Of a stretch of DNA of 64,000 bases, positions 20,898 to 44,582 are shown piece after piece. Within the stretch, counting starts at the first letter, position 1. Every line of letters starts with the position of its first letter. Made by a program: the position numbers and the translations under genes. The stretch covers positions 318,393 through 382,392 of the forward strand of contig AP024680.1 in the NCBI GenBank assembly GCA_025999275.1. Direction: 5' to 3'. The stretch is from Patescibacteria group bacterium (GTDB taxonomy: Bacteria; Patescibacteriota; Microgenomatia; UBA8517). A model generated the notes under the pieces. That model searched no databases. It had not been told where the DNA came from and was given only the letters and a program-made list of their open reading frames with translations.

Positions 20898-20915
20898 CAA
20901 GGTCCGTCCTTGTCA
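20895..20915. terminator. GC-rich palindromic hairpin, family B (TGACAAGGTCCGTCCTTGTCA)
   Basis: 8-bp stem with a 5-nt loop overlapping the TGA stop, followed by a T-rich run. The identical 21-mer recurs at 33039. Confidence 0.55.
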
Positions 20916-20963
20916 TTATTTCTCTTCTTGTTAAGCTTTCCAAAATTTAGTAATCTTAAGTTA

Positions 20964-21623
20964 ATGCTTGAAGTTGTCGATGTTAGCAAAACTTACGGTG
21001 ATATAGTGGCTTTAAATAAGATTTCTTTTAGTGCTGAGGCTGGTGAATTGGTTTTTATCACTGGAAAATCAGGATCTGGCAAGACAACTCTTCTTAAGCT
21101 AATTTTGAGGGAAATTTTTCCTGACAGTGGAAAGATTTTATTTGAGGGTAAAGATATATTTTCTCTTAAAGGCAGTGAAATTCCTTTATATAGGCAAAAG
21201 ATTGGCGTAGTGTTTCAGGATTTTAAGATTTTAACAGAGAAAACAGTACGAGAAAATGTAGAAATTGCTTTGGCTGTAGTAGGTGTTCCTTCTTCTGAAT
21301 GGAATATTCGTGTTGATGAAGTTCTAAAAATGACTGGCCTTGACAGACGAAGTGAGCTTTTTCCTCTACAACTTTCCGGAGGAGAATTGCAAAGAGTTTC
21401 TCTAGCCCGTGCCTTGGTAGTCAACCCCCAAATTATTCTTGCAGATGAGCCGACTGGCAATCTTGACTGGGAAACGTCGGAGGGTATTATGGAATTATTC
21501 AAGAAAGTGGTTGAATCAGGCAAACTGGTCTTGATGGCAACACATAATCTAGCTTTGGTAGATAAGTATTCAAAGGTTGAAAAAGGAAGTAAAATGAAAA
21601 CTAAGGTTATTAATCTTTCTTAA
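20964..21623 (+). CDS. ftsE: Cell division ATP-binding protein FtsE
   Basis: ABC ATPase with Walker A GKSGSGKTT, signature LSGGELQRV and Walker B ILADEPTGNLD. Start set at the Met at 20964 (MLEVVDVSK). Confidence 0.9.
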   Translation: MLEVVDVSKTYGDIVALNKISFSAEAGELVFITGKSGSGKTTLLKLILREIFPDSGKILFEGKDIFSLKGSEIPLYRQKIGVVFQDFKILTEKTVRENVEIALAVVGVPSSEWNIRVDEVLKMTGLDRRSELFPLQLSGGELQRVSLARALVVNPQIILADEPTGNLDWETSEGIMELFKKVVESGKLVLMATHNLALVDKYSKVEKGSKMKTKVINLS

Positions 21624-21625
21624 AA

Positions 21626-22543
21626 ATGGGAATTCATTTTAAGACAGCTATAAGAAATATAATTAGGTCTCCTTTTCAGGCTTTTGCTGCTGTTTTTGTT
21701 TTGGCAATTACTTTCTTTATTGTTAGTATACTTGTTGCTCTTCTTTACTCTTCAAGTCAAGTTTTACATTATTTTGAAACAAGGCCACAAGTTATAGCTT
21801 TTTTGAAGTCAGATGTTTCAGCCGGTGATATTTATAATCTTCAGCAAAAGTTGAGTTCTGATACTCGAGTCAAGGAGGTTCGTTATGTTTCAAAAGAAGA
21901 TGCTTTGAAAATTTACAAGGAGGCAACTTCCGAGACTCCTCTTTTAGCTGAATTAGTTAGCCCTACAGCTTTTCCTGCCAGTCTTGAATTGTCGCTTGTT
22001 AAGCTTGACTACGCTCAAGAATTAATTAGTGAGTTAAAGCAAGAGAAACTAGTTGATCAGGTTGGCTTTACTGCAAACTTGGGGGGAGAGGCAACTTTGA
22101 ACAATACCATAAACAGACTCAAATCCATAGTAAATTATTTGAGATTAGGAGGCGGAATTTTTACGGCTTTCTTGGCTGTCACTTCCCTTATGGTTCTTTT
22201 GGTGGTTATAAGTATGAGATTAATGGCAAGGAAGCAGGAGGTGGATATTCTTAATTTGATTGGTGCAACACCACTTTTTGTTGCAAGTCCTGTTATTTTA
22301 GAGGCGTTTATTTATGTTTTAGTTGGAGTTTTTATTGGTTGGCTTTTGGCTTTTGTTTTGGTTTTATATTTTGCTCCGTCTTTGATTTCTTACTTTGGGC
22401 AGATCGAAATTTTACCAAAAGATACATTTACTCTTTTTAAAATGTCGTTATTAGTTTTGTTTGCAGAATGGCTGGCTGGGTTTGTTTTGGCTTTTTTGGG
22501 GAGCTTCCTTGCAATATCTCGTTTATCCAAAAAGAAGGCCTAG
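21626..22543 (+). CDS. ftsX: Cell division permease FtsX
   Basis: Four-TM FtsX topology with a large first periplasmic loop. Immediately follows ftsE. Confidence 0.8.
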   Translation: MGIHFKTAIRNIIRSPFQAFAAVFVLAITFFIVSILVALLYSSSQVLHYFETRPQVIAFLKSDVSAGDIYNLQQKLSSDTRVKEVRYVSKEDALKIYKEATSETPLLAELVSPTAFPASLELSLVKLDYAQELISELKQEKLVDQVGFTANLGGEATLNNTINRLKSIVNYLRLGGGIFTAFLAVTSLMVLLVVISMRLMARKQEVDILNLIGATPLFVASPVILEAFIYVLVGVFIGWLLAFVLVLYFAPSLISYFGQIEILPKDTFTLFKMSLLVLFAEWLAGFVLAFLGSFLAISRLSKKKA

Positions 22544-22553
22544 TTGTTAAAAA

Positions 22554-23729
22554 ATGCGCTTGCTTTTAAAAAAATTTTTCTTTTTTGTTTTATTAATCTT
22601 TCTTTTTGTGTTTTTATTTTCTTCTTTTACTGTTAGAGCGCAAGATCAGGATATTTCTCGTGACCAAAAATTAAAGGAATTGCAAGATCAAATTGCAAAG
22701 TATGAAGAGGAATTGAGTCGTCTTCGCCAACAATCAGCAACCTTAAGCAATCAAATAGCCCAGTATGACGCTCAGATTGCCCTTGCTACTTTGCAGATTG
22801 AGGAGACACAAAGAAAAATAGAGCTTTTAGAGGGTAGGATTGGACAGCTCGAAAATTCTTTAGACGCTTTAACTAAGGCTTTCTCATCACGTGCGGCTGA
22901 GACTTACAAAATGGTTAAGCTGGGCGAGCCGATTTTGTTTTTAATCTCATCTCCTGATCTTTCAACGGCGGTTTCAAGATTTCATTATCTAAAACTTATT
23001 CAACGATATGATCAAGAGCTTTTGATTAAACTTCAAGCAACCCAAACAACATATCAAGATCAAAAAACGGATCAGGAGTCTTTACAGAAACAGCTTGAAA
23101 AGCAAAAGGCCAATCTTGATGCTCAAAAGGCAGCTAAGGCTAATTTGTTGGCAGCGAGTAAAAATGATGAGAGGTATTACCAAAGACTTTTAACTCAAGC
23201 CAGAAGTCAGCTTGCAGCTTTGAGGCGTTATGTCACAAGTCAGGGTGGAGCAACTATCTTGCAAAATCAAACCAAGTGCGATGGTTGGGGTTGCTATTAT
23301 AACCAGCGAGATAGCCAGTGGGGGACAATTGGCATAGGTGGATCTTCTTATTCAGTGGCTGAATATGGATGTCTTATTTCTTCAATTGCAATGATTAGTA
23401 GCCATTATGGCAAAAAGCTGACGCCAGGTGATATTGCTATTAATCCGAATTATTTTGTCCCCGGAACTGGTTATATTTACCACTCAGCAGAAGGAATGCC
23501 TTTTACAATTAGCACGGCTTCAGTATCACAACTTGATAGTCTTCTTTCTAAAGGCCCTGTAATTGCAGGTCTTTACTCTGGGCCTGATCATTTTATTGTT
23601 ATTTTAAGAAAAGAAGGGAACGATTATATAATGCATGATCCTTTTATGCCTGATGGGGCAAATCGCCGATTGACTGAAAAATATAAAGTTTCAGATATCA
23701 CAAGTCTAAGATTGGTAAGCTTTAATTGA
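22554..23729 (+). CDS. Coiled-coil protein with C-terminal C39-like cysteine peptidase domain (putative FtsEX-regulated peptidoglycan hydrolase, PcsB/EnvC analog)
   Basis: Signal/TM at the N-terminus, ~200 aa of heptad-rich coiled coil (LKELQDQIAKYEEELSRLRQQ), then a C-terminal domain with EYGCLISSIAMISSHYG (Cys) and GPDHFIVILRKEG (His). Position right after ftsEX supports the role. Confidence 0.6.
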   Translation: MRLLLKKFFFFVLLIFLFVFLFSSFTVRAQDQDISRDQKLKELQDQIAKYEEELSRLRQQSATLSNQIAQYDAQIALATLQIEETQRKIELLEGRIGQLENSLDALTKAFSSRAAETYKMVKLGEPILFLISSPDLSTAVSRFHYLKLIQRYDQELLIKLQATQTTYQDQKTDQESLQKQLEKQKANLDAQKAAKANLLAASKNDERYYQRLLTQARSQLAALRRYVTSQGGATILQNQTKCDGWGCYYNQRDSQWGTIGIGGSSYSVAEYGCLISSIAMISSHYGKKLTPGDIAINPNYFVPGTGYIYHSAEGMPFTISTASVSQLDSLLSKGPVIAGLYSGPDHFIVILRKEGNDYIMHDPFMPDGANRRLTEKYKVSDITSLRLVSFN

Positions 23730-23735
23730 GTCTAC

Positions 23736-23771
23736 TTCCACGCCGGGCTTGGAATAGCTTCGCAAGCCGGG
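23736..23771 (+). repeat. REP-like GC-rich imperfect palindrome, copy 1 (TTCCACGCCGGGCTTGGAATAGCTTCGCAAGCCGGG)
   Basis: Identical 36-mer to 36635..36670. Lies just after the stop of the FtsEX-associated peptidase gene. Confidence 0.7.
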
Positions 23772-23841
23772 ATTATTGAATTAAATTTCCTATCGTTTTA
23801 TTGCTGATTTAGGATGTGTTATAAATAAAGTAGCTAAAAAA

Positions 23842-25074
23842 ATGGCCCAAGTTTCAAAAGCTTCTAAGAATGTTTATCTAGAGATTTTGTGTACAAGTTT
23901 TATTTCGTTCCTAAAAATTAAAAAAGATAGTTTTTTCATTTCATATAAAAATTATTTTGCTCGATTCTTTATTTTTGTATTTATTTCTTTTGCTGTCTTA
24001 TTTTTGTCTTTTTCGGAAGTTGCCGCTCAAGTGGTGATTAATGAGTTTCATCCCAATTCACCTGAGTGGGTAGAATTTTACAATAGTAGTTCTGACGTCA
24101 TAAATCTTTCTGATTTTTGGTTTGATGATGACGATAATTTTGTTTCTGATATAGGTACTTCTTCTAAAAGAAGATTGTCTGGTTTATTGAGTGGTGGCGC
24201 AACTTGCTATTTGGATCTTAATAGTTATTTAAATGATAATGGAGACAAGCCAACTATTTTTAGCTTGTCGGGGGAGATAATTGATAGTTATTCTTATATA
24301 TCATCTTTAGGAGATAAAACTTACTCTAGAGATCCTGATGGTGGTGAATGGGCTTCGGCTGGTATGGATCCGACAAAATCTCTGACCAATTGTTTGTCTC
24401 TGGCCACTCCAACTCCTACTCAAACTCCCACTCCAACACCAGTTTCCACTTCATCCTCTAATTCTTCTAGTTCAAAAGCAACGGTTAAAATAAATAGTGC
24501 CAAAGATCAAAACGGAAACGAACTTTTAGGATCGTTGAAAATTTACATCGACGGAAATTATACTGGCAATTATGCTCCAGAGACTTATACATTTTGTAGT
24601 GATTGTAAGTGTGGTAGTAATAATGTCCCTTGTGGTTTTGGCAATCACACTTTTAAAGTTGAAAAGACTGGTTATAATTCTTGGACAAAAACAGCGGAAA
24701 TAAGTGCTGATAATAATTATGAATTTGATCCAGTTTTGACTTTAGTATCTTCTAGTCCTTCTCCAACTTTGAAGGCAACTCCCACCGCAACTGCTTCAGC
24801 AACGCCAAAATCAACAACTTTTAATCTTTCAACTTCTAGCGAATCAGCGCTTCTTGCTGAGGATGTTTTTTCTAATAATAAAGGGGTTTTGGGTGCTTTT
24901 TCTGAAAGCAAGACATCAACTCCTGTTCCCAACCAATCTGATTCAAAGTTTAAATTAGCAGCTCTGTTTTTTATTATTTCGGGTCTTTCTTTTTTGGGAT
25001 CGGCCGTTTATGCTTATCTAAAGAAAAAGAAAAATGCAAAACCAGATGAGTCTAAAAGTGAAGAAGCTGGTTAA
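23842..25074 (+). CDS. Lamin-tail-domain (LTD) cell-surface protein with PEGA-like domain and C-terminal membrane anchor
   Basis: VVINEFHPNSPEWVEFYNSSSDVINLSDFWFDDDD matches the LTD consensus. A TPTPT linker follows. The Cys-rich YTGNYAPETYTF...FKVEKTGYNSWTKTAEI region looks PEGA-like. C-terminal TM with a KKKK tail. Confidence 0.6.
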   Translation: MAQVSKASKNVYLEILCTSFISFLKIKKDSFFISYKNYFARFFIFVFISFAVLFLSFSEVAAQVVINEFHPNSPEWVEFYNSSSDVINLSDFWFDDDDNFVSDIGTSSKRRLSGLLSGGATCYLDLNSYLNDNGDKPTIFSLSGEIIDSYSYISSLGDKTYSRDPDGGEWASAGMDPTKSLTNCLSLATPTPTQTPTPTPVSTSSSNSSSSKATVKINSAKDQNGNELLGSLKIYIDGNYTGNYAPETYTFCSDCKCGSNNVPCGFGNHTFKVEKTGYNSWTKTAEISADNNYEFDPVLTLVSSSPSPTLKATPTATASATPKSTTFNLSTSSESALLAEDVFSNNKGVLGAFSESKTSTPVPNQSDSKFKLAALFFIISGLSFLGSAVYAYLKKKKNAKPDESKSEEAG

Positions 25075-25444
25075 ACTTTGGGCGCCGCCTGTTTTTTGGA
25101 TGGCGCTTATTTTTTTTCTTAGCTCTCGTCCTACACTCAAAACGACTCAAATTTACTGGCAGGATTTTATTATCAAAAAAACAGCTCATTTTATTGAGTA
25201 TGCAATTTTGGCTTTTCTTTATCTCCGTGGCTTTTTGGGAAGCGGTTTTCCAAAAAAGAAGTCGTTTATTTTTGCACTTGTTCTTTGTATTTTGTATGCC
25301 GCTTCTGATGAATTTCACCAGTCTTTTATTCCCGGTCGGGAGCCAAGAATAAGGGATGTGATAATTGATACCATTGGCGCTTTTTCATCTTTGTACTATT
25401 TTGTCTTTTATAGAAAAAAGCCCTTTAAGTATTTGCAATCTTAA
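25034..25444 (+). CDS. VanZ-like family membrane protein
   Basis: DEFHQSFIPGREPRIRDVIIDTIGA matches the VanZ signature. Overlaps the end of the LTD gene, and the exact start is uncertain. Confidence 0.6.
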   Translation: MQNQMSLKVKKLVKLWAPPVFWMALIFFLSSRPTLKTTQIYWQDFIIKKTAHFIEYAILAFLYLRGFLGSGFPKKKSFIFALVLCILYAASDEFHQSFIPGREPRIRDVIIDTIGAFSSLYYFVFYRKKPFKYLQS

Positions 25445-25468
25445 ATCAATCTGCACTATTATTAATTA

Positions 25469-26098
25469 ATGGCAAGGGAATCTGCTATTCAAAAAGAAAA
25501 GAAAAAGGTTTCTTCCTATCTTAATATTGCCGGTGAGGTCTTTATTCTTTTTTCAATCTTAATTTTGTTTTTCACCTATGGGCCGGTGACAAAAGAGGAG
25601 GTTTCCTATCAGATAAGACAAGTAGTTAAAAACAAAGAAGTCAAAGAAATCCAGCCTGTCAACACTCAATTTTCAATCGTTATTCCAAAACTTGAAGTTT
25701 CAGCGCCTGTATTTGCTTCTGTTGATCCTTTTAATCCAAGCGAATACTTGCCCGTCTTAAAAAAGGGAGTTGCTCATTCAAAATATTCCTCTTTTCCTGA
25801 CAGTTTTGGCAACACTTACCTTTTTGCCCATTCAACCGACGCTTTTTATAATGTTGGCAAATATAACGCTGTTTTTTATCTTCTTGGAAAATTAGAAAAG
25901 GGAGATGAGATAGATGTTTATTATAAGGACCAAAAATATGTTTATAGAGTATCTGATAAGAAAGTTGTTGAACCGAAGGACGTGTTTTATTTGGTCAATT
26001 CTGGAAAGGGAAATATTTTAACTCTTCAGACTTGCTATCCGCCAGGAACAACGTTAAAGCGTTTGATTGTTATTGCTAATCAGGAAGTTGGGATATAG
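25469..26098 (+). CDS. Sortase-family transpeptidase
   Basis: N-terminal TM, conserved His (YLFAHSTD) and the catalytic TLQTC (TLxTC) motif near the C-terminus. Confidence 0.75.
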   Translation: MARESAIQKEKKKVSSYLNIAGEVFILFSILILFFTYGPVTKEEVSYQIRQVVKNKEVKEIQPVNTQFSIVIPKLEVSAPVFASVDPFNPSEYLPVLKKGVAHSKYSSFPDSFGNTYLFAHSTDAFYNVGKYNAVFYLLGKLEKGDEIDVYYKDQKYVYRVSDKKVVEPKDVFYLVNSGKGNILTLQTCYPPGTTLKRLIVIANQEVGI

Positions 26099-26265
26099 TA
26101 AAATTGAACAGGCTTTTTTAGCTAAATATTGACTTTTCCTATAGCAAGTGTTATAAAGCATTTGGGTAGCCTAGCCTTATATAGATGCACAAAAATAAAA
26201 GACGGCTAATTGCCTTAATATCTGCCTTTTCGGTTTTAATTAACTCGCTCTCCTTTTAGTCTCCT

Positions 26266-29200
26266 TTGGTTGTTTTAGCTCAAGAAACACAGGAAGGGAC
26301 TCCTGTAGTTGAAAATCAGCCGCAACAGACAGAAACATCTACACCCCAGCCAACAGAATCAGTAGCTGAGACAAGTACTCCAAATCCTAGTGTTAGCCCT
26401 TCTTTAGAGCCAAGTCCTGCACCTAGCCTAGAGCCTTCTCCAATAAACAATCTTCAAACTGAAACCCCTACACCAACAGCAACACCAGCTCAGGAAGTTT
26501 TGGGAGCAGATACAAATACCACCACTCCTTTTCCCTCAACGCCGGCAAGCGAAGACAAGAATAAAGATGCTCATATCAATGCTGTGGTTTTAAGTGATGT
26601 TAGCGCCTCAAGTATTGATGAAGCTGATTTATCCTATCTTGAAAGTGCCACTAGCGCCACTTTGAGAACTGATAAATTTGACTATTCGCCGACTGATGCT
26701 GTTGTTATAACTGGCGAAGGATTTGCTCCAAATACCGAGTATGAATTGGTCATTACTTCTGGTACTGGTAATTTTAGATTTTCTGATCGTGTCACCTCTG
26801 ATGAATCAGGTGGGCTTTTCTATACCTATCAACTCGACGGCACCTACAGGCCGGAGTATAAGGCGGAAGTGTTTGATTTGTTGGGTGGTGTAGCTGCTTC
26901 GGTCAATTTTTCAGATAGTGATAAAGTTCGTCTTTGCCATCGTACCAAATCTGATAGTAACCCATATGTTTACTTAGAGGTGAATATTAAAAATAACGGA
27001 GATTTGAAAGGTGGCCACCTTAATCATACCGGACCAATATGGTATCCTGGCATTCAAGGCAAATGGGGAGATATTATCCCTCCCTATTCCAGTGGTAATT
27101 TTAACTACTCTGGGATGAACTGGGATGCTAATGGTCAAGCTATTTGGAACAATGGTTGTAAGTTGCAAATAGCTTGTCAAGAAGGTCCCAGTTGGACAAG
27201 TGATGTGATCTCTTTTAATCAAGGTAAGAATAAAGATGGTTCTGATGTACCAGAAGAAAGATCTGATCCCTATAATGCATTAGGAAAACCTGACAGTTTT
27301 GGTAATGATGTTAATTTTGTTAGTCTTGGTAAAGGTGGCTCCATTGTTCTGGTTTTTCTTGGATGGGTGAAAGATAAAGAAGGTAATGATCTTTCCTTCC
27401 ATGAGGTTACTTGGGGTAGAGAAAACTATCCTGAAGAGAAAGCAAAAGTAGAGGTAAGCCAAGATGGCGATAGTTGGTATGGAGATTGGATTGTAAGCAG
27501 TAAAGCTACAAATGGTATTGGTTATATTGATTTTTCTTCAACTAGGTTGTCTTGGGTAAAATATGTAAGGATTACCGATACTACAGATTTTAGTCTTCAT
27601 ACTAATGATGCTGATGGATATGATCTCGATGCGTTAGATGCGGTTTATCAGCTGTGTAGTTTACCTTCTCCTTCACCGACTTTATCTCCTTCTCCTACTC
27701 CAGCTCCTTATTGTGGAGATGGCGTCAAGAATGGTCAAGAACAATGCGATGGGTCTGATGGGGTTGGTCAAAATCAATTTTGTACCAAAAATTGCAAACT
27801 TATTCCAATTTATGATGGATTTCATTCTTGTCCCGCTGGAACGGTTAAAAGTCAAAGTCCTGTTTTATCAAAGACAATATCCGCAACCGATTCTGATGGA
27901 GAAACTTTTAACCTGACTGCTGGAGGAAAATATCTTTTTGAAGTTAGTGGTGTTTACAGCTATGATAAGAGCAATTCTGCTAAATGGGCCGATGCTGCCT
28001 ATGCTACTGACAATAATTGGTCTAGCGCTAGATCTGATATTGGTATTTGGGAAACAAATAGAGGTGTAACTTCTCTACTTGCTGATTTTGGTAAGGGGGT
28101 GGGTGTTGTTGAGTGGGATGATAATCAAGTATATAATTCTGACCATACTTATCAAAAGTATTATTCTCCAACTACCAATTCAGTTAAGTTCTTAATAAGC
28201 GATTGGTACGATGAATGGTACAGCTCGCCATATAATAATCAATCAGCAATGTCTGATAATTCTGGTAGCTTAAGTTTAGATGTTTATGAATGCCAACCTG
28301 TATCAGAAGTTACTGTCTGTAAATATGACAATGAAGAACACCCTTTGAGTGATTGGCGAGTTTATCTTTTAGGAGATAAAGTAGGAAATACTATTTCTGT
28401 TCCTTCTAATGGCACTGTAGTTAACGCTGGTTCTTATCCAAATGATAATTATGTTCTTTTGGCCTCGGGTACTTATAACTATGGGAATGATCGGATGAAT
28501 GCTGATGCGGCTAATTCTTATCGTTATGTTGGACTTCCTTGCAGTGGGCCAACTGATGGGTGGGTGAGTGGAGAGTCTTCTTGTATGGGAAATTATCTTT
28601 CTTTGAATTTTTCAACTAGCGGGGGGCCAACAGCTCCCGGATGGGGAGATTACTACAACCCCGATCATATATATGCAAAATTTTTTGCCGGCGGCGGTTT
28701 GAATTTAAAAGTTTGGGATAGGTGTAGTAGTAATCAAGTGGAAGGATGTTATGGTGATAATGAAGGATCTTTAAGTCTTGATATTTATAAAGGTTTTGTT
28801 GGCGATACAGGGGAAAATGGATGTGTAACATTTACTAACGTTCCTTATGGGGCATATCAATTAGGTGAAATTTTACAGGAAGGATGGCAGAAAGTCAGTG
28901 GTTCGGGTGAGGTAGTAATTGACAGTGATGAGGAAAATTTTGATTTAATTAATAATGAATTGCCTAAAAAAGGCAATCTAAAAGTTTCCAAAGTCGTTGA
29001 CTGGAAAAATGTTACGCCAGACACTTCTAAAACTTTTGAAATTTGTATAACAGGACCTTCTTATCCTAATCCTGATTGTAAAACAGCTGATTATGATGGT
29101 GAAACACTTGAATGGAAAGATATTTTAGCTGGTGATTATACTGTAACAGAAACCACTCCAACAGGCGGTTGGATAGTAACAGGGTCAGGTCAAACTGTAA

Positions 29201-32200
29201 CTGTTAATAAAGATCAGACTTCTTCTGTTGAAATAAAGAATGAAGCAAATTCGATTATCATTAAAGCCTATAAGGTGGTTTGTGATAGCGAGCAATATTT
29301 GCCAAACTGGGGAAACCATGGAAGCGTGATTGGCGCTAATACAGCTCAAAGTTTTGTTAATAATTCTCAAGGCCATTGCCGGCTTGAGGATGGATGGAAA
29401 TTCCAATATGCACCTAAGGGTTCTGGTAGTAATGGTGCATTTCAAACCAACACACAGGAGTTGGGAACTCCTTGGACAACTTTCGGTCCTACTGTTGGCG
29501 GCGAAGCAGTAGCTGTAATAAATGATATTTCTAATTTTGATGGTCGAATTGAAACGAGAGAAGTTTTTAAAGACAATACCTATATTCCTTTTTCAAACAG
29601 TAGTAATAATGTAAGTGCGGAATTTTACTGCACTGGTGATACGTATAATTATGACAACTGGGAGTGGATAAATAACCCGCAATACGGCAGCACCTACTAT
29701 TGTGTTGCTTTTAATGCCAAGAAAAGCACTGTAATTTCAGGGAGGAAGTTTAATGATTTAAATTACAATGGTAAAGATGATGAAGAGCCTGGCCTTGAAA
29801 ACTGGAAAATTTTGGCGGCTCAAAAGGTAGATGAAGTTAATGTTTCGGCAAAAGATATGCCAACAGTTTCTTCAAATATTCCTTTGATCTCTGGTCAAGA
29901 GTATCTTTTAAGAGTTTCCGGGACTTATCAAGCCGGAGATAATATTACAGCCGATGCAAAATACTCAGTTCGTAGCCCAAATACTTACTGGACTGATTAT
30001 GTTCAAAATTATCAATCTTATGGACCAACTCTTTTAGATTTGCAAATTAATAATAATTCTTATGACTGGGGAAGTTATAATCCAAATCATGTTTATTGGT
30101 TAATTCTTTCTGGTGGTGGTTCGCCAATTAATTTTAGGCTTAATGATATTTATCCATCAAATAATTCAGGATCTTTAAATGTTAAAATTTATAAAGTCAT
30201 TTCCGAAACAACTACCGCAAACGATGGAAGTTATCAGCTAACTTTAACCAGTGATCCTGGATCAGATATAATTGTGGCTGAAGAAACTCAAAGCGGTTAT
30301 ATGCAAATCACTCCAAATGGCGAAAATTTTGGTTACTGCAATGTCACTTCATACCAAGAAAATAAATGTAATTTCGGTAATGCTTTAGCTTATGGTTCAA
30401 TTTATGGTTATAAGTATGATGAAGATAGAGAAACTGGACTTGGTGGCTGGACTATATTTATAGATGATAATAATAATGGTATTTTGGATCAGGGTGAGAA
30501 AGACGCTACCACAAGTGATGATGAAAAAAACAATGGCTATTATGAGTTTAATGGTCTAACGGCAGGGACATATTCTGTTTGTGAGGTAGAGCAAGAAGGC
30601 TGGCAGAGGATGTATCCCCTTGGTTCTAACTGTCAATCTGTGACAATTACTTCTGGATCTAAATTTGAGGTTGATTTCCAAAACAGGAAAGTTGTTTTGG
30701 GGCTTAGTCTTACAAAGTCAAACGATGCCGCAACTGCCTTGTCTGCTGGAAGCCAAGTTAATTATACTTTAAAGATTAAAAATACAGGTAATCAGAAATT
30801 GACTGGAGTTATTATCAAAGATGCTCCTGCTGGTGGATTTACTTATGTTGATGATAGTGGCATTCTTGATAGCAATCCGATTAATCCTACTCAATTGGGG
30901 GGCTATCTTGACTGGTATATTGGAGATCTTGATGCAGGAGAGGAAAAAGTGTTGTCTTACAAGATGTCAACTAATAGTGGCATGATCTCTGGCATTTATC
31001 CAAATGTTGCCATAGCGACTGGAATTTATACACCGTCTGAATATCAACCTGAAGAGGTGGTTACAAATAGATCCTTGGTAGTTGAAGCATTGGCTGTTGA
31101 TGGTGACTCTGGGGAAGAAAGGGTTGAAAGCAATGCCGGTGTTCCCGTTAACTCTCAGGTTGAAATTAAGGCTCCTTTGGCTTACTCAACTGGAGTTGGG
31201 GGAACAGGGGGGCAAGTTTTGGGCGCATCAACTGAGGCCGGTGAAGTTTTGCCTGCTGCTGGTTCTGATAGCCGAATAGTTTTGTTTGCTCTCTTGGGTC
31301 TTATTTTGGGAGCTTTGCTTAAAGTTTCAGGATTAGCTCTAGAGAGAAACTGGGTAGATTATAGGAAATTAAAGAAAAATATTAAAAGAATGGGTAGTTT
31401 TATTGCAGTCTTGATTTTCCTTCTTGGTTTTGCCCCTTCTGCTAGGGCTTTCTCTGACTATGTTTATATAACTCAACTGCCAGCTTATCTAAACAAGGAA
31501 GATTTCAAAATTTCCTATTCCGCTCTTTCTGAAAACCCAATTTCTGCTCAGTTTTATATTAGGAAAGACGGGGATTCAAGCTGGAGGACTCTTGGTTCTT
31601 CTTTGTCTGGAGCCTCGGGATATGTGCAAGTTCATGGCGGGGATATTTACAATGGTGATGGTAAATATTTCTTCAAGGTGGTTATAAATAGCGGGTCGGC
31701 TGAAGATCAAACTTCAACCATAATTGACAGACAGTCTCCTGATCCAGTTCGTGATTATTGGAAAGAGAAGTTAGGGGATGGACATTACAAGCTTCATTGG
31801 AGAAATCCTGACAATGAGGATTTTGATAAGGTAATAATTTATCGCTCGGATAGTACCAATTTTACGGCTGATTCCTCAACTGAGATAGCCACAGTTTGGG
31901 GGTCAAGGAATTCTGAAATGACTTATGAGAATGCCGCAGTAGCAGGAAAAGAATACTATTTTGCCATTAGGGCAATTGATAAGGCGGGAAATGCATCAAG
32001 CGTTGTTGCTGATCCTGAGACACAAGTTTCAGCAGGTGCTGTGTTAGGTGAGTCAACGGTGGCAACCGGTTCTCCTAAAGCAGAGGTGGTCAAGATTTTG
32101 CCAAAAGAAGAAAAGAAGGGTGAGGTTTTAGGCGAGGAGAATAGAGAGGAGGAGCCAGTTTCTTCTCCAACACCTGAAGTTCAAGAACAATCAGGCGGTG

Positions 32201-32319
32201 TTTTGGGCCAGGCAATAAAATTTGCCAAAGATAGAACAAAAATTACTCTTCTTATCGCTCTTGGCCTTGGGATTGTTTCTTATTACCTGTCTCGTCTTTG
32301 GAAAAAGAATAAGAATTAA
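26266..32319 (+). CDS. Giant (2017-aa ORF) multi-domain surface adhesin; possibly two in-frame fused genes
   Basis: Thr/Pro-rich N-terminus, a Myxococcus-type Cys-rich repeat (CGDGVKNGQEQCDGSDG), several SdrD-B/CnaB-like Ca-binding folds (DDNNNGILDQGEKD, GTYSVCEV), a DUF11-like repeat (VNYTLKIKNTGNQKLTGVII), and a fibronectin-III-like module near the end. An internal LPAAG + hydrophobic + basic segment at 31248..31389 is followed by a second signal-peptide-like Met at 31390. The track start is TTG; an in-frame signal peptide ORF lies upstream at 26185, separated by a TAG. Confidence 0.7.
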   Translation: MVVLAQETQEGTPVVENQPQQTETSTPQPTESVAETSTPNPSVSPSLEPSPAPSLEPSPINNLQTETPTPTATPAQEVLGADTNTTTPFPSTPASEDKNKDAHINAVVLSDVSASSIDEADLSYLESATSATLRTDKFDYSPTDAVVITGEGFAPNTEYELVITSGTGNFRFSDRVTSDESGGLFYTYQLDGTYRPEYKAEVFDLLGGVAASVNFSDSDKVRLCHRTKSDSNPYVYLEVNIKNNGDLKGGHLNHTGPIWYPGIQGKWGDIIPPYSSGNFNYSGMNWDANGQAIWNNGCKLQIACQEGPSWTSDVISFNQGKNKDGSDVPEERSDPYNALGKPDSFGNDVNFVSLGKGGSIVLVFLGWVKDKEGNDLSFHEVTWGRENYPEEKAKVEVSQDGDSWYGDWIVSSKATNGIGYIDFSSTRLSWVKYVRITDTTDFSLHTNDADGYDLDALDAVYQLCSLPSPSPTLSPSPTPAPYCGDGVKNGQEQCDGSDGVGQNQFCTKNCKLIPIYDGFHSCPAGTVKSQSPVLSKTISATDSDGETFNLTAGGKYLFEVSGVYSYDKSNSAKWADAAYATDNNWSSARSDIGIWETNRGVTSLLADFGKGVGVVEWDDNQVYNSDHTYQKYYSPTTNSVKFLISDWYDEWYSSPYNNQSAMSDNSGSLSLDVYECQPVSEVTVCKYDNEEHPLSDWRVYLLGDKVGNTISVPSNGTVVNAGSYPNDNYVLLASGTYNYGNDRMNADAANSYRYVGLPCSGPTDGWVSGESSCMGNYLSLNFSTSGGPTAPGWGDYYNPDHIYAKFFAGGGLNLKVWDRCSSNQVEGCYGDNEGSLSLDIYKGFVGDTGENGCVTFTNVPYGAYQLGEILQEGWQKVSGSGEVVIDSDEENFDLINNELPKKGNLKVSKVVDWKNVTPDTSKTFEICITGPSYPNPDCKTADYDGETLEWKDILAGDYTVTETTPTGGWIVTGSGQTVTVNKDQTSSVEIKNEANSIIIKAYKVVCDSEQYLPNWGNHGSVIGANTAQSFVNNSQGHCRLEDGWKFQYAPKGSGSNGAFQTNTQELGTPWTTFGPTVGGEAVAVINDISNFDGRIETREVFKDNTYIPFSNSSNNVSAEFYCTGDTYNYDNWEWINNPQYGSTYYCVAFNAKKSTVISGRKFNDLNYNGKDDEEPGLENWKILAAQKVDEVNVSAKDMPTVSSNIPLISGQEYLLRVSGTYQAGDNITADAKYSVRSPNTYWTDYVQNYQSYGPTLLDLQINNNSYDWGSYNPNHVYWLILSGGGSPINFRLNDIYPSNNSGSLNVKIYKVISETTTANDGSYQLTLTSDPGSDIIVAEETQSGYMQITPNGENFGYCNVTSYQENKCNFGNALAYGSIYGYKYDEDRETGLGGWTIFIDDNNNGILDQGEKDATTSDDEKNNGYYEFNGLTAGTYSVCEVEQEGWQRMYPLGSNCQSVTITSGSKFEVDFQNRKVVLGLSLTKSNDAATALSAGSQVNYTLKIKNTGNQKLTGVIIKDAPAGGFTYVDDSGILDSNPINPTQLGGYLDWYIGDLDAGEEKVLSYKMSTNSGMISGIYPNVAIATGIYTPSEYQPEEVVTNRSLVVEALAVDGDSGEERVESNAGVPVNSQVEIKAPLAYSTGVGGTGGQVLGASTEAGEVLPAAGSDSRIVLFALLGLILGALLKVSGLALERNWVDYRKLKKNIKRMGSFIAVLIFLLGFAPSARAFSDYVYITQLPAYLNKEDFKISYSALSENPISAQFYIRKDGDSSWRTLGSSLSGASGYVQVHGGDIYNGDGKYFFKVVINSGSAEDQTSTIIDRQSPDPVRDYWKEKLGDGHYKLHWRNPDNEDFDKVIIYRSDSTNFTADSSTEIATVWGSRNSEMTYENAAVAGKEYYFAIRAIDKAGNASSVVADPETQVSAGAVLGESTVATGSPKAEVVKILPKEEKKGEVLGEENREEEPVSSPTPEVQEQSGGVLGQAIKFAKDRTKITLLIALGLGIVSYYLSRLWKKNKN

Positions 32320-33041: not shown

Positions 33042-33059
33042 CAAGGTCCGTCCTTGTCA
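33039..33059. terminator. GC-rich palindromic hairpin, family B (bidirectional position)
   Basis: TGACAAGGTCCGTCCTTGTCA incorporates the pyrH TGA and sits between convergent pyrH and the GT-C gene. Confidence 0.55.
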
Positions 33060-34538
33060 GTTGATAATTTGATATAAAAGTAAGGAATCTGTTGGGTTTT
33101 CTTTCCATGGAGGCTTGGGAATCTCTTTTATTAAGTTTAGATTGGGATTTTGAACAAGGTTTGATTTGTGGATTACAAAATAAACAGGTTTTTCTTTAAG
33201 TTTTTCATAAACATAAGATTCGATTTGTGAGCTACTATACCAAACTTCAATATTTTTGTTTTTGCCGATATAAATCTCAAGTCCGTCAGGCAATGTTCCA
33301 AAGGCACCAGCTGTAACAACTAAAATTTTTTGATCTTTTGCTTTCTCTTTTAGAAAATTAGCCATTTCTTTTATTCCATAACCTGCTGTCCATCCTTCAA
33401 AGTACCCATCTTTTTCTTTTTTAGGTAGATTGGCTTGCCATGGTTTTGTAATAAGCTGATAATCAAAAATTATTGCTGGGATTAAGACCAGAGTGGTTAG
33501 AGTGCTAAAAACAGCCTTTCTGTTTTTGGCTATTTTTTCTGATATTTCTGCAAAAGACCAACTGGCAAGAAAGATGAATGTAACTATACTTGGTAGAATA
33601 TATCTTGCCGTGTAGGTTTTAAGAAGAGCAGTAAGTATAATGAAAGGAATAGCTCCCCAAAGGAAAATTATTATGTTTTCCTTTTTCTTTTTGTAAAGGG
33701 AGAGAAAAATTGCAAATATAAAAGTTAAGAAAACAGGCCAAGTCATCAATTTGGTAAGAAAAACAAAACCTTCTTTGGTGTTGCCTATAAATGGATCAAG
33801 TGGTTTCTCCCAGAGTCGCGATATGGGGAAATGATAATACTCATTTCTTTTTCCAAGTTGTTTGAAATAGGGGCTAATTCTAAGTGAATTGTATAGGCAC
33901 AATCCTATTATTGCTGATAAAGTAAGTCCCAAAATTGATTTTGTTAGTTTCTTTTTATTTTTAAAGTCGGCTTTTATTAAAGCTAGTGGAAGTAGAAAGA
34001 AATTAAACATTCCGGGTGTTTTGGTTAGTATTGAAGCTCCTAAGATTAGTCCTAGAAGTATTATATTTTTGGCTGACGGTTTTTCTACCGTCTCAAGAGC
34101 AAGAATTAGTGACCAAAATGAAAAAGCAGCAAGCATCGAATCGGTTAATGCCATTCGATCAAAAAATACCAAAAATGGAGTAAAGGTAAAAAATAGAGCA
34201 GCAACCAAAGCTGTTTTTGGTTGGAAATACCTTTTGGAGAGATAGTATGCTCCATAAAGTGTGAGAAGGCTTATTAAGATTGAGACTATTCTTCCTGCCA
34301 GAAGAGGATCGGATATAATTTTTAAGCTTGGCACAACCAACCACATAAATAGTGGAGTTTTACCATCGACAAGTGGAATAAATAAATTAATTTTGGGATT
34401 TTCGATGATTTTTTGCGCCCAATGGATATAGATTGCCTCATCACAAAATACTGGCTGTAGATTGAGGTTGTAGGTTCTGATCAGAAGGTAAAATGTGATG
34501 ATTAAAATGGCAGATAAAAAAAGTTTTTTGTGCTTCAT
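33057..34538 (-). CDS. GT-C-fold glycosyltransferase (ArnT/PMT family, GT39/GT83-like)
   Basis: Polytopic, with the N-terminal loop motif VFCDEAIYIHWAQKI (DE..Y) characteristic of ArnT/PMT-type lipid-linked-sugar transferases. 493 aa. Confidence 0.6.
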   Translation of the reverse strand: MKHKKLFLSAILIITFYLLIRTYNLNLQPVFCDEAIYIHWAQKIIENPKINLFIPLVDGKTPLFMWLVVPSLKIISDPLLAGRIVSILISLLTLYGAYYLSKRYFQPKTALVAALFFTFTPFLVFFDRMALTDSMLAAFSFWSLILALETVEKPSAKNIILLGLILGASILTKTPGMFNFFLLPLALIKADFKNKKKLTKSILGLTLSAIIGLCLYNSLRISPYFKQLGKRNEYYHFPISRLWEKPLDPFIGNTKEGFVFLTKLMTWPVFLTFIFAIFLSLYKKKKENIIIFLWGAIPFIILTALLKTYTARYILPSIVTFIFLASWSFAEISEKIAKNRKAVFSTLTTLVLIPAIIFDYQLITKPWQANLPKKEKDGYFEGWTAGYGIKEMANFLKEKAKDQKILVVTAGAFGTLPDGLEIYIGKNKNIEVWYSSSQIESYVYEKLKEKPVYFVIHKSNLVQNPNLNLIKEIPKPPWKENPTDSLLLYQIIN

Positions 34539-36680: not shown

Positions 36681-37352
36681 TTACTGCACTAGAAGATGCT
36701 TTATTTTTTCCAGTTTCTTCTGATATTCAGCGTGATTAAATGTAAATTCTCTAAACTTTTCGATGTTTCTGAAGTTTGATAGAACTATTTGTTTGAGGTC
36801 GCATATGTTTGATTCGTTTTCGGAGTTAAGATACTCTGCTAGCGAAGACCATGTATATTGTTCCAGTTTTTTCAGATCCTTAATTATCCCCGAAGAGTAA
36901 GGGTTAAGGTGGATATATCTTGAAAGATGTTTTATTTGTTCATCTGTTTCTACCAGAACAGATTTGAATCTGTTTTCAAATAAAGGGCCGGTTCTTTTGT
37001 GTTTAGTATTGAAGAATTTTGTGTAACTTGTTAGGAATCTGTTCATGAATGAACTTATACCATTATCTTCTTCTTGCCTAAGAATAAAATGGAAGTGATT
37101 TGGCATTAGACAGTATGCTACAAAGGAAACGGATTTGTTTTTTAGTGTGGATTTTATCTCTTCTTTTATTTGTGGTTTTAGTGATCTGAAAGAGGAGAAT
37201 TTGACTGGATAGTCTGAAAATCGGCAATAGTCAATTATGTCTATAAATCTTTGGTAATCTCTTTTATCAAGAAATATCGGAGCTCGGTTTATTCCTCTGT
37301 TGAAGATATGATATATGTGATTTGTAACAAGAGGAGTTTTTCTTATGGGCAT
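36681..37352 (-). mobile_element. REP-associated tyrosine transposase (RAYT / TnpA-REP, IS200/IS605-like Y1 HUH transposase)
   Basis: HUH motif MPNHFHFIL and the catalytic-Tyr region RYIHLNPY. 223 aa. Flanked by inverted REP copies at 36635 and 37367. Confidence 0.7.
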
Positions 37353-37366
37353 GTTTATTTATTTTG

Positions 37367-37403
37367 GTATTTAAAACCCGGCTTGTCAACATATTTCCAA
37401 GCC
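37367..37403 (-). repeat. REP-like palindrome, copy 3 (inverted; right flank of RAYT gene)
   Basis: The reverse complement reads TTCCACGCCGGGCTTGGAAATATGTTGACAAGCCGGG. Both arms match copies 1 and 2, and the central loop has diverged. Confidence 0.65.
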
Positions 37404-37439
37404 CGGCGTGGAATTGATATGTTTGGTATAATAGTCTTT

Positions 37440-38189
37440 ATGAAAGGAGTGGTTTTGGCTGGAGGGTTGGGGACCAGGCTTTACCCTCTGACTTACGCTA
37501 CCAATAAACACCTTCTCCCGGTTTATGATAAACCGATGGTTTTTTACCCAATTAATACCTTGGTAAGAGCAGGAATTAAGGAAGTTTTGGTGGTTACAGG
37601 TGGGCCTTATGCTGGTCATTTTGTTAGAGTTTTAAAAAATGGCAAGGAGTTGGGTCTGAAGCATTTGGAGTATGCATATCAGGAAGGTGAGGGTGGAATT
37701 GCAGCTGCTCTTTCTTTGTGTGAAGATTTTGCCGATGGTGATTCTTTGTGTGTTATTTTAGGTGATAATTGCACAGATGCTGACATTTCAAAACAGGTTA
37801 AAGGTTTTAAAGATGGCGCTATGGTATTTCTCAAAAAAGTTCCTGATCCAGAGCGTTTTGGAGTGCCGGTTTTTAATGAGAATAGAGAAATAATCAAAAT
37901 AGAAGAGAAACCTAAAAAGCCAAAATCAAACTTTGCTGTTACTGGGCTTTATATGTATGATTTTTCTGTCTTTTCTAAAATTAAATCTGTTAAACCTTCT
38001 GCTCGAGGAGAATTGGAAATTACAGATGTTAACAATCTTTATATAAAAGAGAAGAAACTAAGGTGGGCGATTTTAAAGGGTTATTGGCGTGATGCTGGAA
38101 CTTTTCAAACTCTTTTTGAGGCTAATAAATATTGGGCTAGGAAGGCAGCTTTTAAGGACCGAATCTTTAAAAGTAGTCGCACAATTTAA
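37440..38189 (+). CDS. rmlA: Glucose-1-phosphate thymidylyltransferase-like sugar nucleotidyltransferase
   Basis: MKGVVLAGGLGTRLYPLT is the nucleotidyltransferase G-loop, and a heads the dTDP-sugar operon. A TATAAT at 37424 suggests a short or absent leader. The alternative start is 37419. Confidence 0.8.
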   Translation: MKGVVLAGGLGTRLYPLTYATNKHLLPVYDKPMVFYPINTLVRAGIKEVLVVTGGPYAGHFVRVLKNGKELGLKHLEYAYQEGEGGIAAALSLCEDFADGDSLCVILGDNCTDADISKQVKGFKDGAMVFLKKVPDPERFGVPVFNENREIIKIEEKPKKPKSNFAVTGLYMYDFSVFSKIKSVKPSARGELEITDVNNLYIKEKKLRWAILKGYWRDAGTFQTLFEANKYWARKAAFKDRIFKSSRTI

Positions 38190-38192
38190 TAC

Positions 38193-39206
38193 ATGAAATT
38201 ATTAGTAACAGGTGGCGCTGGATTTATAGGTAGTAATTTCATTAGCTATTGGTTGAAAAATAACCCTAAAGATAAAATTATTAATTTTGATAAATTAACT
38301 TACGCTGGCCATTTGTCTTCTACTTCCGATTTTGCTTCTAATAAGAACTATACTTTTGTTAGAGGTGATATTTGTAATTCCAAATTGGTTGATGAGGTTA
38401 CCAAAAATGTTGATATAATAGTTCATCTTGCAGCTGAAAGCCATGTTGATCGTTCTATTTTTGGCCCTGCCACTTTTATCAAAACTAATGTTTTAGGTAC
38501 ACAGACTCTTCTTGATTCAGCTCTAAAAAATAAAATTAAGCTTTTTTGCCATATATCAACGGATGAAGTTTTTGGTGCCCTTCCACTTGATAGTAGGAAG
38601 AAATTTAATGAAAAAACTCCTTATAATCCTCGTTCTCCTTATTCTGCAAGTAAAGCTGCTTCAGATCACTTAGTCCGTGCCTATTTTACGACTTATGGCT
38701 TGCCGGTTGTTATTACCAATTGTTCTAACAATTTTGGTCCTTACCAGGATCCTGAAAAATTTTTGCCAAGAATGATTACCAATTTAATTGATAATAAGCC
38801 TATTCCTATCTATGGGGATGGTAAGTATGTTCGTGATTGGCTTTATGTTCTTGACCATTGTCGTGCAATTGAGATGGTTATTAAGAAGGGTAAGGTTGGA
38901 GAAACTTATTTAATTGGTGGTTTAACAAAAGATATCAGTAATTTGGAAGTGGCAAAGATGCTTCTTAAGATCTTTAATAAAGACAATTCTTATATTCAGT
39001 TTGTAAAAGACAGGCCTGGTCATGACAGACGCTATGCAGTTGATTGGAGTAAGATTAAAAACGACCTTGGTTTCAAGCCAGAGTTTGATTTTAGTGTTTG
39101 GCTTGAAAAGACAGTTGAATGGTATAAGGCTAATGAGTGGTGGTGGCGGCCTCTTAAGAAAAAAGCGGAAAAATTTTACCAAAAAACAAACAATAACCGA
39201 AAATGA
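38193..39206 (+). CDS. rmlB: dTDP-glucose 4,6-dehydratase
   Basis: Extended SDR with TGGAGFIGS, the catalytic YSASKAASD, and DWLYVLDHCRAI. 337 aa. Confidence 0.9.
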   Translation: MKLLVTGGAGFIGSNFISYWLKNNPKDKIINFDKLTYAGHLSSTSDFASNKNYTFVRGDICNSKLVDEVTKNVDIIVHLAAESHVDRSIFGPATFIKTNVLGTQTLLDSALKNKIKLFCHISTDEVFGALPLDSRKKFNEKTPYNPRSPYSASKAASDHLVRAYFTTYGLPVVITNCSNNFGPYQDPEKFLPRMITNLIDNKPIPIYGDGKYVRDWLYVLDHCRAIEMVIKKGKVGETYLIGGLTKDISNLEVAKMLLKIFNKDNSYIQFVKDRPGHDRRYAVDWSKIKNDLGFKPEFDFSVWLEKTVEWYKANEWWWRPLKKKAEKFYQKTNNNRK

Positions 39207-39775
39207 AGCAAATTTCCGAACATATTTACGAAACAAGTTTAAATGGTCTTTACAAAATAGAGATGCCGACTTTCAAAGACGAAAGAGGTTTCTTCCATGA
39301 AGTTTTTCGTTTAGATGAACTTAAGAAAGCAACCGGAGTTGATTTCAAACCAGTTCAATGGAATCATTCGCTTTCCAAACCAAAAGTAATAAGAGCTATT
39401 CACACGGAAGGTTGGAATAAACTTGTTTATCCGGTAACTGGCAAGATGTTTGCTGTCATTGTTGATGTTCGTGAAGAAAGTCCGACTTTTGGGAAATATG
39501 AAGAGTTTGTGTTTGATAATACTTCTTATGATTCTTCTCATTTTGCTCTATTTATATCCAAGGGGTTGGGCAATTCTATTTGTGCTTTTGGCAGCCAACC
39601 TGTTAATTACATGTATTTGGTTGATGAGTATTGGGATAATAGCAAGGCGCAAGGTATAGCTTGGGACGATCCTGATATTGGTATTAAATGGCCTGTTGAA
39701 GATCCTATTATTTCGGAAAGAGACAAAAATAATCCTCGTTTGAGTGATCTTTTTCCTCATAAATATGGCAAGTAA
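39203..39775 (+). CDS. rmlC: dTDP-4-dehydrorhamnose 3,5-epimerase
   Basis: Cupin-fold RmlC: FHEVFR...VQWNHS...RAIHTEGWNKLVYPVTGKMFAVIVDVR. 4-nt overlap with rmlB. Confidence 0.85.
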   Translation: MKQISEHIYETSLNGLYKIEMPTFKDERGFFHEVFRLDELKKATGVDFKPVQWNHSLSKPKVIRAIHTEGWNKLVYPVTGKMFAVIVDVREESPTFGKYEEFVFDNTSYDSSHFALFISKGLGNSICAFGSQPVNYMYLVDEYWDNSKAQGIAWDDPDIGIKWPVEDPIISERDKNNPRLSDLFPHKYGK

Positions 39776-40673: not shown

Positions 40674-40685
40674 TTATGACTAACT

Positions 40686-41351: not shown

Positions 41352-41391
41352 ACCCTTATTTTATATTTTTTGAGCTCTAAAAGCCATTTTT

Positions 41392-44578: not shown

Positions 44579-44582
44579 TTTT

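Follow-up and report, generated by a model that had tools for sequence, protein, structure and literature searches.

A patescibacterial VanZ-2 operon and a sortase-giant protein cassette as two probably distinct cell-envelope modules of a Woesebacteria-like bacterium

The 64,000-nucleotide stretch of contig AP024680.1 (assembly GCA_025999275.1) analysed here, which we call the window, comes from an ultra-small Microgenomates (Woesebacteria-like) bacterium of the candidate phyla radiation (CPR) and encodes a run of envelope genes that includes a membrane protein with a lamin-tail domain (LTD), a VanZ family protein, a sortase and a giant surface protein. The relatives of the sortase bear Microgenomates or Woesebacteria names, and the best genome match is Woesebacteria isolate Ch104a (CP055308.1). 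An original prediction, made from the letters alone, placed these four genes correctly on the plus strand with the correct domains (list of open reading frames, ORFs; Pfam and NCBIfam scores above cutoffs) and took them for a single unit in which VanZ is tied to the sortase. The domain annotation of the four genes is far beyond chance since all scores exceed curated cutoffs. From a comparison with 160 related loci in all, which carry L numbers below, we consider it likely, at roughly three to one, that the region comprises two adjacent cell-envelope modules and not one unit, the first spanning 20910-25444 and the second 25469-32319 (Table 1).

Table 1. Features of the two modules (window coordinates)
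Feature	Position	Strand	Basis
FtsE-type ABC ATPase, first gene of module 1	20910..21623	+	Pfam ABC_tran E=1.6e-35; position kept in relatives
FtsX permease with extracellular domain	21626..22543	+	Pfam FtsX_ECD 3e-14, FtsX 8.1e-11
Coiled-coil membrane-anchored protein, PcsB/EnvC-like FtsEX partner	22554..23729	+	Pfam C39 and coiled-coil matches
Stalked single-pass surface protein (LTD/PEGA), 410 aa	23842..25074	+	Pfam LTD, PEGA; C-terminal transmembrane segment
VanZ-2 type lipocone membrane protein, predicted lipid-linked-oligosaccharide (lipid II) pyrophosphatase, 136 aa	25034..25444	+	Pfam/NCBIfam
Sortase, 209 aa	25469..26098	+	Pfam Sortase E=4.9e-24, 84.9 bits (cutoff 26.6)
Sigma-70-like promoter of the giant gene, TTGACT-17 nt-TATAAA	26129..26157	+	pattern conserved across species
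Giant surface-protein ORF fused with FN3-like partner	26185..32319	+	SpaA 7.3e-12, DUF11 2.7e-10 (Pfam)
In-frame TAG inside the giant's signal peptide	26257..26259	+	TGG (Trp) in L088, L003, L004
Discoidin/CBM32-like (galactose-binding-domain-like) beta-sandwich in the giant, aa 306-463	27181..27654	+	model pLDDT 92.7
Sorting motif QVLGASTEAGEVLPAAG, LPAAG at 31249-31263	31213..31263	+	consensus in relatives
Membrane hairpin after the sorting motif	31273..31449	+	same layout in 9/22 resolved species, 55 protein clusters
FN3-like type-I membrane protein segment ('FN3tail'), C-terminal transmembrane segment 32242-32298	31450..32319	+	weak fn3, E=0.003-0.06

Module 1 is the already described patescibacterial VanZ-2 operon. 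Burroughs et al. (eLife 2025; PMC12419801) reported an operon of VanZ-2, an ABC transporter, a coiled-coil papain-like or Gly-Gly peptidase and a transmembrane (TM) protein with external lamin-tail domains, for which they proposed a lineage-specific peptidoglycan modification, and all five components lie in the window in the same order. The window copy differs from the published one in that a sortase gene, absent from the paper, follows within 24 nt downstream, and the gene in the LTD position carries another ectodomain in a third of relatives. The window peptidase is the papain-like version, with a C-terminal C39-like domain at aa 248-367 (nt 23295-23654; Peptidase_C39_2 28.2 bits, cutoff 24; Peptidase_C39 24 bits, cutoff 22), and relatives have M23 instead, as in the equivalent gene of L006, which fits the published description (PMC12419801). 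Its matches to the NCBIfam EnvC and PcsB models are weak and far under the model cutoffs. In the FtsEX-PcsB (S. pneumoniae), FtsEX-CwlO (B. subtilis) and FtsEX-EnvC (E. coli) systems, FtsEX drives coiled-coil hydrolases. The window shares with them the FtsE ATPase, an FtsX with an extracellular domain and an adjoining gene for a coiled-coil protein with a C-terminal peptidase, but its catalytic domain is C39-like and not CHAP, NlpC/P60 or LytM, and two conserved genes, for the stalked LTD protein and VanZ, are added.

The VanZ protein scores well above the cutoffs of both family models (Pfam VanZ E=8.3e-18, 65.7 bits, cutoff 30.1; NCBIfam vanZ_1 104 bits, cutoff 20) and contains the motifs KKTAH (25175-25189), SDEFHQSF (25304-25327) and RDVIID (25352-25369); H52, D92, E93, H95, Q96, R102, D108 and D112 are invariant in 14 orthologues. 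It has both hallmarks by which VanZ-2 is defined, RKxxH in helix 2 and DxxxD in helix 4 (PMC12419801), H52, E93, D108 and D112 being mapped by motif and not by alignment to E. faecium VanZ. The remark in the original prediction that VanZ-like proteins are poorly understood has been overtaken, since the family is now assigned lipid-linked-oligosaccharide pyrophosphatase activity: such enzymes reportedly include yeast Llp1, a VanZ family member, E. coli YfiM and an orthologue from a plant, and enterococcal VanZ is proposed to be a lipid II hydrolase acting via H87/E128/D143/D147 (bioRxiv 10.64898/2026.09.16.752124). The window protein resembles them in its Pfam and NCBIfam membership and in the retained His, Glu and Asp-x3-Asp active-site motifs; the difference is that activity was demonstrated for the yeast, E. 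coli and plant proteins only, and the function of the window VanZ-2 is predicted. PDB sequence searches with VanZ and with the LTD protein returned no match.

The product of the gene preceding VanZ has a signal peptide at about aa 42-62, an LTD domain (E=6.8e-10, aa 61-153, nt 24022-24300), a PEGA domain (E=4.4e-5, aa 234-299, nt 24541-24738), a Pro/Thr/Ser stalk (stalk peptide NNKGVLGAFSESK) with a GVLGAF motif at 24883-24900, and a C-terminal TM segment at aa 372-393 (24955-25020) followed by an acidic/K-rich cytoplasmic tail. The first ATG of the ORF adds 36 residues before a normal signal peptide; because relatives begin ~25-35 residues later, the true start is probably downstream, e.g. 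near 23911. Of the pre-VanZ proteins of 41 relatives, 25 have LTD as their ectodomain, 12 have an unrelated beta-rich domain in its place and 3 have the two together. The ectodomain is swapped between strains and species (e.g. L003, L004, L005, L008) and the stalk and TM segment are conserved; in three contigs with an identical sortase, the LTD proteins are just 46-59% identical to that of the window. A homology of the alternative ectodomain to the FN3-like partner of the giant was considered and is not supported by comparison. We propose, by analogy, that FtsEX of module 1 would drive the coiled-coil papain-like hydrolase to cut peptidoglycan in growth and division, that VanZ-2, its H/E/D/D site being intact, would act in the same place by hydrolysing lipid II or other precursors linked to undecaprenyl pyrophosphate, and that the ligand of the strain-variable LTD/PEGA ectodomain may be a polymer of the wall or something else outside the cell.

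Module 2 begins with the sortase, which has a sole, N-terminal TM anchor (25517-25585) and the catalytic residues His121 (in FAHST, 25823-25837), Cys189 (in LTLQTC, 26018-26035) and Arg198 (26054-26065), the His-Cys-Arg triad with its TLxTC motif being invariant in 31 homologues. It exceeds the general sortase model TIGR01076 (55.8 bits, cutoff 39.35), and its AlphaFold2 model (pLDDT 81.9) has the eight-stranded beta-barrel fold of sortases, matching more than 100 sortase chains (best E=8.9e-12). Every NCBIfam class model is missed (class C 60.9 bits against a cutoff of 160, D 58.9/165, SrtD 58.3/140, E 45.5/160, F 23.8/166), Foldseek scores for classes C, D, A and E are nearly equal, and the PDB sequence search likewise gave no class, so that the enzyme is best called a member of an unclassified Microgenomates clade. 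It shares the N-terminal anchor, the triad and TLxTC with housekeeping sortases (class A SrtA; class E SrtE, which uses LAXTG) but falls under all class cutoffs. The giant protein resembles housekeeping substrates in its signal peptide, LPxTG-type motif, hydrophobic segment and basic residues, and differs from LPXTG/LAXTG substrates in having LPAAG (LPATG in most relatives, 'VLGAATG' in one clade) at an internal position, followed by another ectodomain and TM segment. The original prediction, in which the giant is a presumptive substrate of the sortase, is borne out for this pair by LPAAG with its TM and basic segments and by the adjacency of the two genes in 25 species-level genomes.

Both the nearest solved structures and the top NCBIfam score point to class C, and the giant carries SpaA-type, prealbumin-like domains next to a sortase gene, all of which would suit a SpaA-type pilus locus with a class C pilin polymerase. 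We reject this reading as highly improbable: the class C score is far under its cutoff, classes D, E and A fit the model nearly as well, the enzyme has a single N-terminal TM segment with neither C-terminal anchor nor lid in the model, and its one substrate is a 2,000-aa protein and not a set of several 30-90 kDa pilins, with no second pilin gene present.

How closely the two modules are linked can be judged from gene order. Gene calls already computed around sortase homologues gave the first picture of the locus, and 80 loci from species-representative genomes were annotated with our own hidden Markov models (HMMs), domain-only models taking the place of a first full-length LTD model that over-called owing to the low-complexity stalk. 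Because this sample had been picked via the sortase, a second, VanZ-centred sample was drawn from metagenome contigs independently of the sortase, with 29 loci of the type FtsEX-peptidase-X-VanZ. The Woesebacteria-like backbone runs from a LytR_C protein through a small protein, PrfB, another small protein, FtsE, FtsX, the coiled-coil peptidase and the stalked membrane protein to VanZ; there follow 0-13 variable genes, among which TsaE and an epimerase are frequent, and then the sortase, the giant, a ~300-aa FN3-like membrane protein, a CAP-domain protein, a small protein and an RNaseH-like protein.

In the sortase-centred genome sample the stalked protein lies directly upstream of VanZ in 17/17 loci, the two genes overlapping by 11-50 nt in 13 of them (by 41 nt in the window, an overlap that the original prediction had pointed out), and the coiled-coil peptidase is at most four genes from VanZ in 16 of the 17, the exception being a contig end. 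The distance to the sortase is far less constant. For 21 sortase-giant loci the upstream sequence spans 3 kb or more, and VanZ is adjacent to the sortase in 2 of them, 1-13 genes off in 12 and absent in 7; the 15 VanZ-centred loci with at least 1.5 kb downstream have the sortase adjacent in none, farther on in 3 and nowhere in 12, the CAP backbone gene being reached ahead of any sortase in 7. Of the 25 genomes in which the sortase is directly followed by the giant, 7 have no VanZ within 10 kb. The sortase, giant and FN3-like genes thus behave as a cassette whose insertion between the VanZ and CAP genes is optional. Neither the epimerase gene nor TsaE, the usual separators of VanZ and the sortase, was found elsewhere in the window, where there is only a 26% paralogue. 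Gene order is conserved, then, for the LTD-VanZ pair, together with FtsEX and the peptidase, and for the sortase-giant pair, and it is not conserved for VanZ and the sortase. The single conserved unit and the tight VanZ-sortase coupling that had been proposed do not hold, and the VanZ-sortase partnership is left unsupported because the genes fall into two merely juxtaposed modules.

The giant gene also has a promoter-like sequence of its own. The pattern TTGAC[AT]-N16-18-TAwhAh occurs within 120 nt upstream of 13/31 giant genes against 24/725 (3%) other genes, 0/18 LTD, 0/19 VanZ and 2/83 sortase genes. The sites, near-consensus TTGACa-17-TATAAt, are found in L003, L004, L006, L008, L016, L021, L022, L025, L026, L038, L041 and L045 as well as in the window, and this conserved promoter directly upstream means that the giant gene is probably transcribed on its own. 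A generic promoter scan of 20.3-33.2 kb was not enriched (39 found against 33±6 expected), nor was, in the window, the 8-mer TGTTATAA common to the regions upstream of the LTD and giant genes (7 against 3.7). The complete -35/-10 pattern in front of giant genes in different species was the sole informative signal. The upstream regions of the LTD gene (23810-23825) and of the giant gene (26142-26157) also have a 16-nt element in common, TAGnnnGTGTTATAAA.

Several observations weigh against a division into two modules. Just 0-150 nt lie between VanZ and the sortase in the window and in the relatives nearest to it (L001, L003-L005, L008, L016), and no promoter-like site was detected between these two genes in the same genomes; with the genes so close and no promoter between them, LTD, VanZ and sortase may well be co-transcribed in the window. 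The two modules lie only 0.5-7 kb apart in 12/21 genomes. One Woesebacteria lineage has an in-frame VanZ-sortase fusion of 310-322 aa (L015 1906-2874, JAGUYM010000004.1; protein cluster P0121) with a sensible topology, four TM segments and then the sortase anchor. A functional link would be chemically plausible because lipid II is the expected target of VanZ and sortase alike. Finally, the gene calls and HMM labels are home-made, and one 'LTD' label, that of L052, is a low-complexity false positive.

These points would suit a single surface-display unit of LTD protein, VanZ, sortase and giant, in which VanZ helps the sortase to anchor proteins, for instance through removal or recycling of intermediates in which the protein is joined to lipid II: the acceptor used by sortases is lipid II, the proposed substrate of VanZ; the two genes are directly adjacent in the closest relatives; and the spacing in the window is tight throughout, the 41-nt overlap being followed by gaps of 24 nt between VanZ and the sortase and 86 nt between the sortase and the ATG of the giant. 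Set against them are the rarity of VanZ-sortase adjacency in both samples, the cassettes without VanZ, the VanZ operons without sortase and the promoter of the giant gene, and a sortase is nowhere mentioned in the published survey of the genes around VanZ (PMC12419801). Among the best 120 matches of a search of 5.8 billion proteins, no cluster but the fusion combines PF04892 with PF04203, all others having matched the sortase part alone; as a single cluster among the matches listed, the fusion was rejected as a general Rosetta stone. A literature search on VanZ with sortase, on internal LPXTG and on FtsEX in Patescibacteria found nothing relevant. We therefore regard the single unit as unlikely and retain the two-module reading.

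The giant protein was called as an ORF of 2017 aa from a TTG at 26266, and its real start is the ATG at the position in Table 1. After a signal peptide that reads MHKNKRRLIALISAFSVLINSLSF, the in-frame stop and SPLVVLA, with the cleavage site before QE, come a PT-rich linker, Ig-like and discoidin-like domains, a Cys-rich repeat (27709-27795), repeated jelly-roll-like modules, SpaA domains (29083-29244 and 30394-30687) and DUF11 (30703-31011). The expectation of a carbohydrate-binding type of fold in the adhesin agrees with the discoidin/CBM32-like beta-sandwich predicted at aa 306-463. This segment is common to ~80 surface proteins, including cargo of the type IX secretion system (T9SS) of Bacteroidota and LTD proteins of CPR bacteria, and the model supports, at the level of fold only, a ligand-binding and probably glycan-binding head. 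The domain is 35-58% identical to T9SS-sorted Bacteroidota, camelysin-like and CPR LTD proteins and looks like a mobile adhesion module that moves between phyla. Export of the giant would rely on its Sec signal peptide, and the segment behind LPAAG would keep it in the membrane; we infer that Cys189 of the sortase would cleave it and transfer it to a wall precursor, so that the discoidin-like and other beta-sandwich domains would be displayed on the SpaA/DUF11 stalk.

The TAG within the signal peptide is, judged by comparison with relatives, a nonsense mutation or a base error. Locus L088, an independent assembly whose sortase is identical to that of the window at 100% of amino acids and 98.6% of nucleotides, has TGG at this site, as do L003 and L004, and these three and every other relative have an unbroken signal peptide. 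The genetic code is standard: the 57 long ORFs of the window end in TAA (27), TGA (18) or TAG (12), and an alternative code or amber suppression was rejected because the sortase gene itself is among those ending in TAG. Recoding was rejected too, as an Rfam scan of the window found two tRNAs only, Ala-CGC and Glu-CTC, neither a suppressor, and the strain with the identical sortase has TGG. Since the premature TAG breaks the signal peptide, the giant gene may be inactive, and the adhesin thus switched off, in the window genome. Between the window (26185-30180) and L088 (885-4877) the giants are 86% identical with many indels, a dS of 0.35 and a dN/dS of 0.24, which points to a hypervariable or recombining surface gene. 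In ~25 loci the giants have a strongly conserved signal-peptide core, (F/L)S(L/I)L(L/I)NS...P(L)xV(Y/L)AQE, which hints at a specialised export or targeting signal.

The sorting region of the giant consists of QVLGASTEAGEV-LPAAG (peptide QVLGASTEAGEVLPAAGSDS), then a hydrophobic segment of 23 residues and a basic loop with seven K/R residues; about 20 giants have VLGAST(E)LP[AD][TA]G followed by a TM segment and K/R, the motif in relatives being LPATG, LPDTG or LPSTG. In the membrane hairpin, the first TM segment (31273-31341) and the basic loop ERNWVDYRKLKKNIKR (31342-31389) lead to a second hydrophobic segment (31390-31449), which is the signal peptide of a fused partner and ends in ARA before FS. 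Such sorting signals sit at the extreme C-terminus in 13/22 relatives; in the window LPAAG begins 355 residues before the C-terminus of the giant, the 351 residues that follow holding the second hydrophobic segment, the FN3-like ectodomain and a third TM segment. The signal is internal because a normally separate, overlapping FN3-like gene is fused to the giant. No LPXTG-type signal was found in the last 60 residues of any other ORF of the window.

The FN3-like tail is a separate gene for a protein of 297-330 aa in 13 of 22 resolved species, its ATG overlapping the stop of the giant by 8-32 nt in 11 of the 13 (e.g. ATGCAAAAAACTAA), and is fused as in the window in the other 9, which fall into two clades of the sortase tree; the loci with the fused layout include L003, L008, L009, L010, L013, L021, L025 and L027, and the fused proteins include P0260-P0408. 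Among the best 150 matches of a search of 1.84 billion representative proteins with the tail, 115 clusters were classifiable, 60 of them standalone and 55 with the tail at the C-terminus of proteins of 700-2,600 aa; 50 of these 55 have 'VLGAATG' or an LPXTG-type motif immediately before the tail, 'VLGAATG' standing in for LPXTG right before the TM segment in ~25 fused clusters. The simplest reading, we infer, is that the fusion is cut back into the two usual products: a sortase cut at LPAAG and a signal-peptidase cut after ARA would regenerate a wall-linked adhesin and its membrane partner. On these sequence comparisons, the locus departs from textbook sortase biology in one respect only, the recurrence of an internal sorting signal whose membrane partner is fused or overlapping.

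The VLG sequence in front of LPXTG belongs to a juxtamembrane stalk motif, G-[QE]-V-L-G-[AE]-[SA]-T-E, that is enriched 3-15 fold in surface proteins (the giant, the FN3 partner, the LTD protein, h157, CAP and YkuD), at a median of 32 aa from the TM segment against 81 for random positions. It occurs in many loci, in the window at 24883-24900, 26497, 31216, 32041, 32125, 32200, 19155 and 55656; an extended sortase signal, a protease site and a glycosylation sequon are candidates for what it represents.

The motif bears on the LTD/PEGA protein, which the original prediction counted among the presumptive sortase substrates. As a search of its last 60 residues found no LPXTG-type pentapeptide, it was rejected as an LPXTG substrate; the LTD-like protein with LPKAG beside the sortase in L052 is not homologous. 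It could still be a second substrate if the sortase recognised a non-canonical G[QE]VLG[AE]ST-type stalk motif, given that the VLG motif directly precedes LPXTG in giants, that 'VLGAATG' takes the place of LPXTG in ~25 fused clusters, and that LTD-type proteins have VLG or VAGAST 5-30 aa ahead of the TM segment, the motif being 4-fold enriched in these proteins and near the membrane. We think this very unlikely: the GVLGAF of the window is 19 residues from the TM segment and has neither T-G nor an LPXTG-like pentapeptide, the cytoplasmic tail is long, acidic and unlike that of a sorting signal, and the motif is also found in N-terminally anchored YkuD, CAP and h157 proteins, where sortase cleavage would be senseless.

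Beyond the two-module reading, a bolder version can be put forward only tentatively: the Microgenomates sortase cassette might encode a self-resolving two-protein precursor with an internal sorting signal, the membrane partner released from it being obligatory, the VLG element might be a new sortase-related recognition motif, and a weaker form of VanZ-2/sortase cooperation, on intermediates linked to lipid II, might exist in the subclade where the genes are adjacent or fused.

Some neighbouring features deserve mention. A 19-nt palindromic hairpin, GACA[AG]GG-TCCG[TA]-CC[TC]TGTC, is found at gene boundaries (0 expected by chance), and the changes in its stem are compensatory. It occurs in the window at 15538, 18049, 20896, 33040, 34650 and 34673, in L001 at 5317 and 16004, in L003 at 790 and in L005 at 151; the entire run from FtsE to PyrH is flanked by those at 20896 and 33040. 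The hairpin looks REP-like (repetitive extragenic palindrome) or terminator-like. Directly after the locus, on the minus strand at 33057-34538, lies a gene for a PMT_2-type GT-C glycosyltransferase, a position kept in L001, L003 and L008, and a low-GC (28-30%) island at 37251-48971 encodes two more PMT_2 proteins (one TPR-fused), GT2, methyltransferases and Rml-like sugar-nucleotide proteins. It is possible that the PMT_2, GT2 and Rml-like genes provide the machinery that glycosylates the PT-rich stalks.

The result is mainly corrective: VanZ belongs to a described division and cell-wall operon, and there is no new 'VanZ-sortase' apparatus. It also offers a testable picture of how a CPR bacterium whose envelope is Gram-positive-like would display its largest surface protein. 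Dozens of Microgenomates protein clusters have the sorting signal ahead of a fused membrane partner, so sortase sorting signals need not be C-terminal, and LPXTG detectors limited to the C-terminus would miss such substrates, which is relevant to the annotation of CPR surface proteomes. The VLGAST stalk motif, which is found lineage-wide, could mark an unrecognised recognition or modification site. All this may also be relevant to the choice of targets in the few cultivable episymbiont systems.

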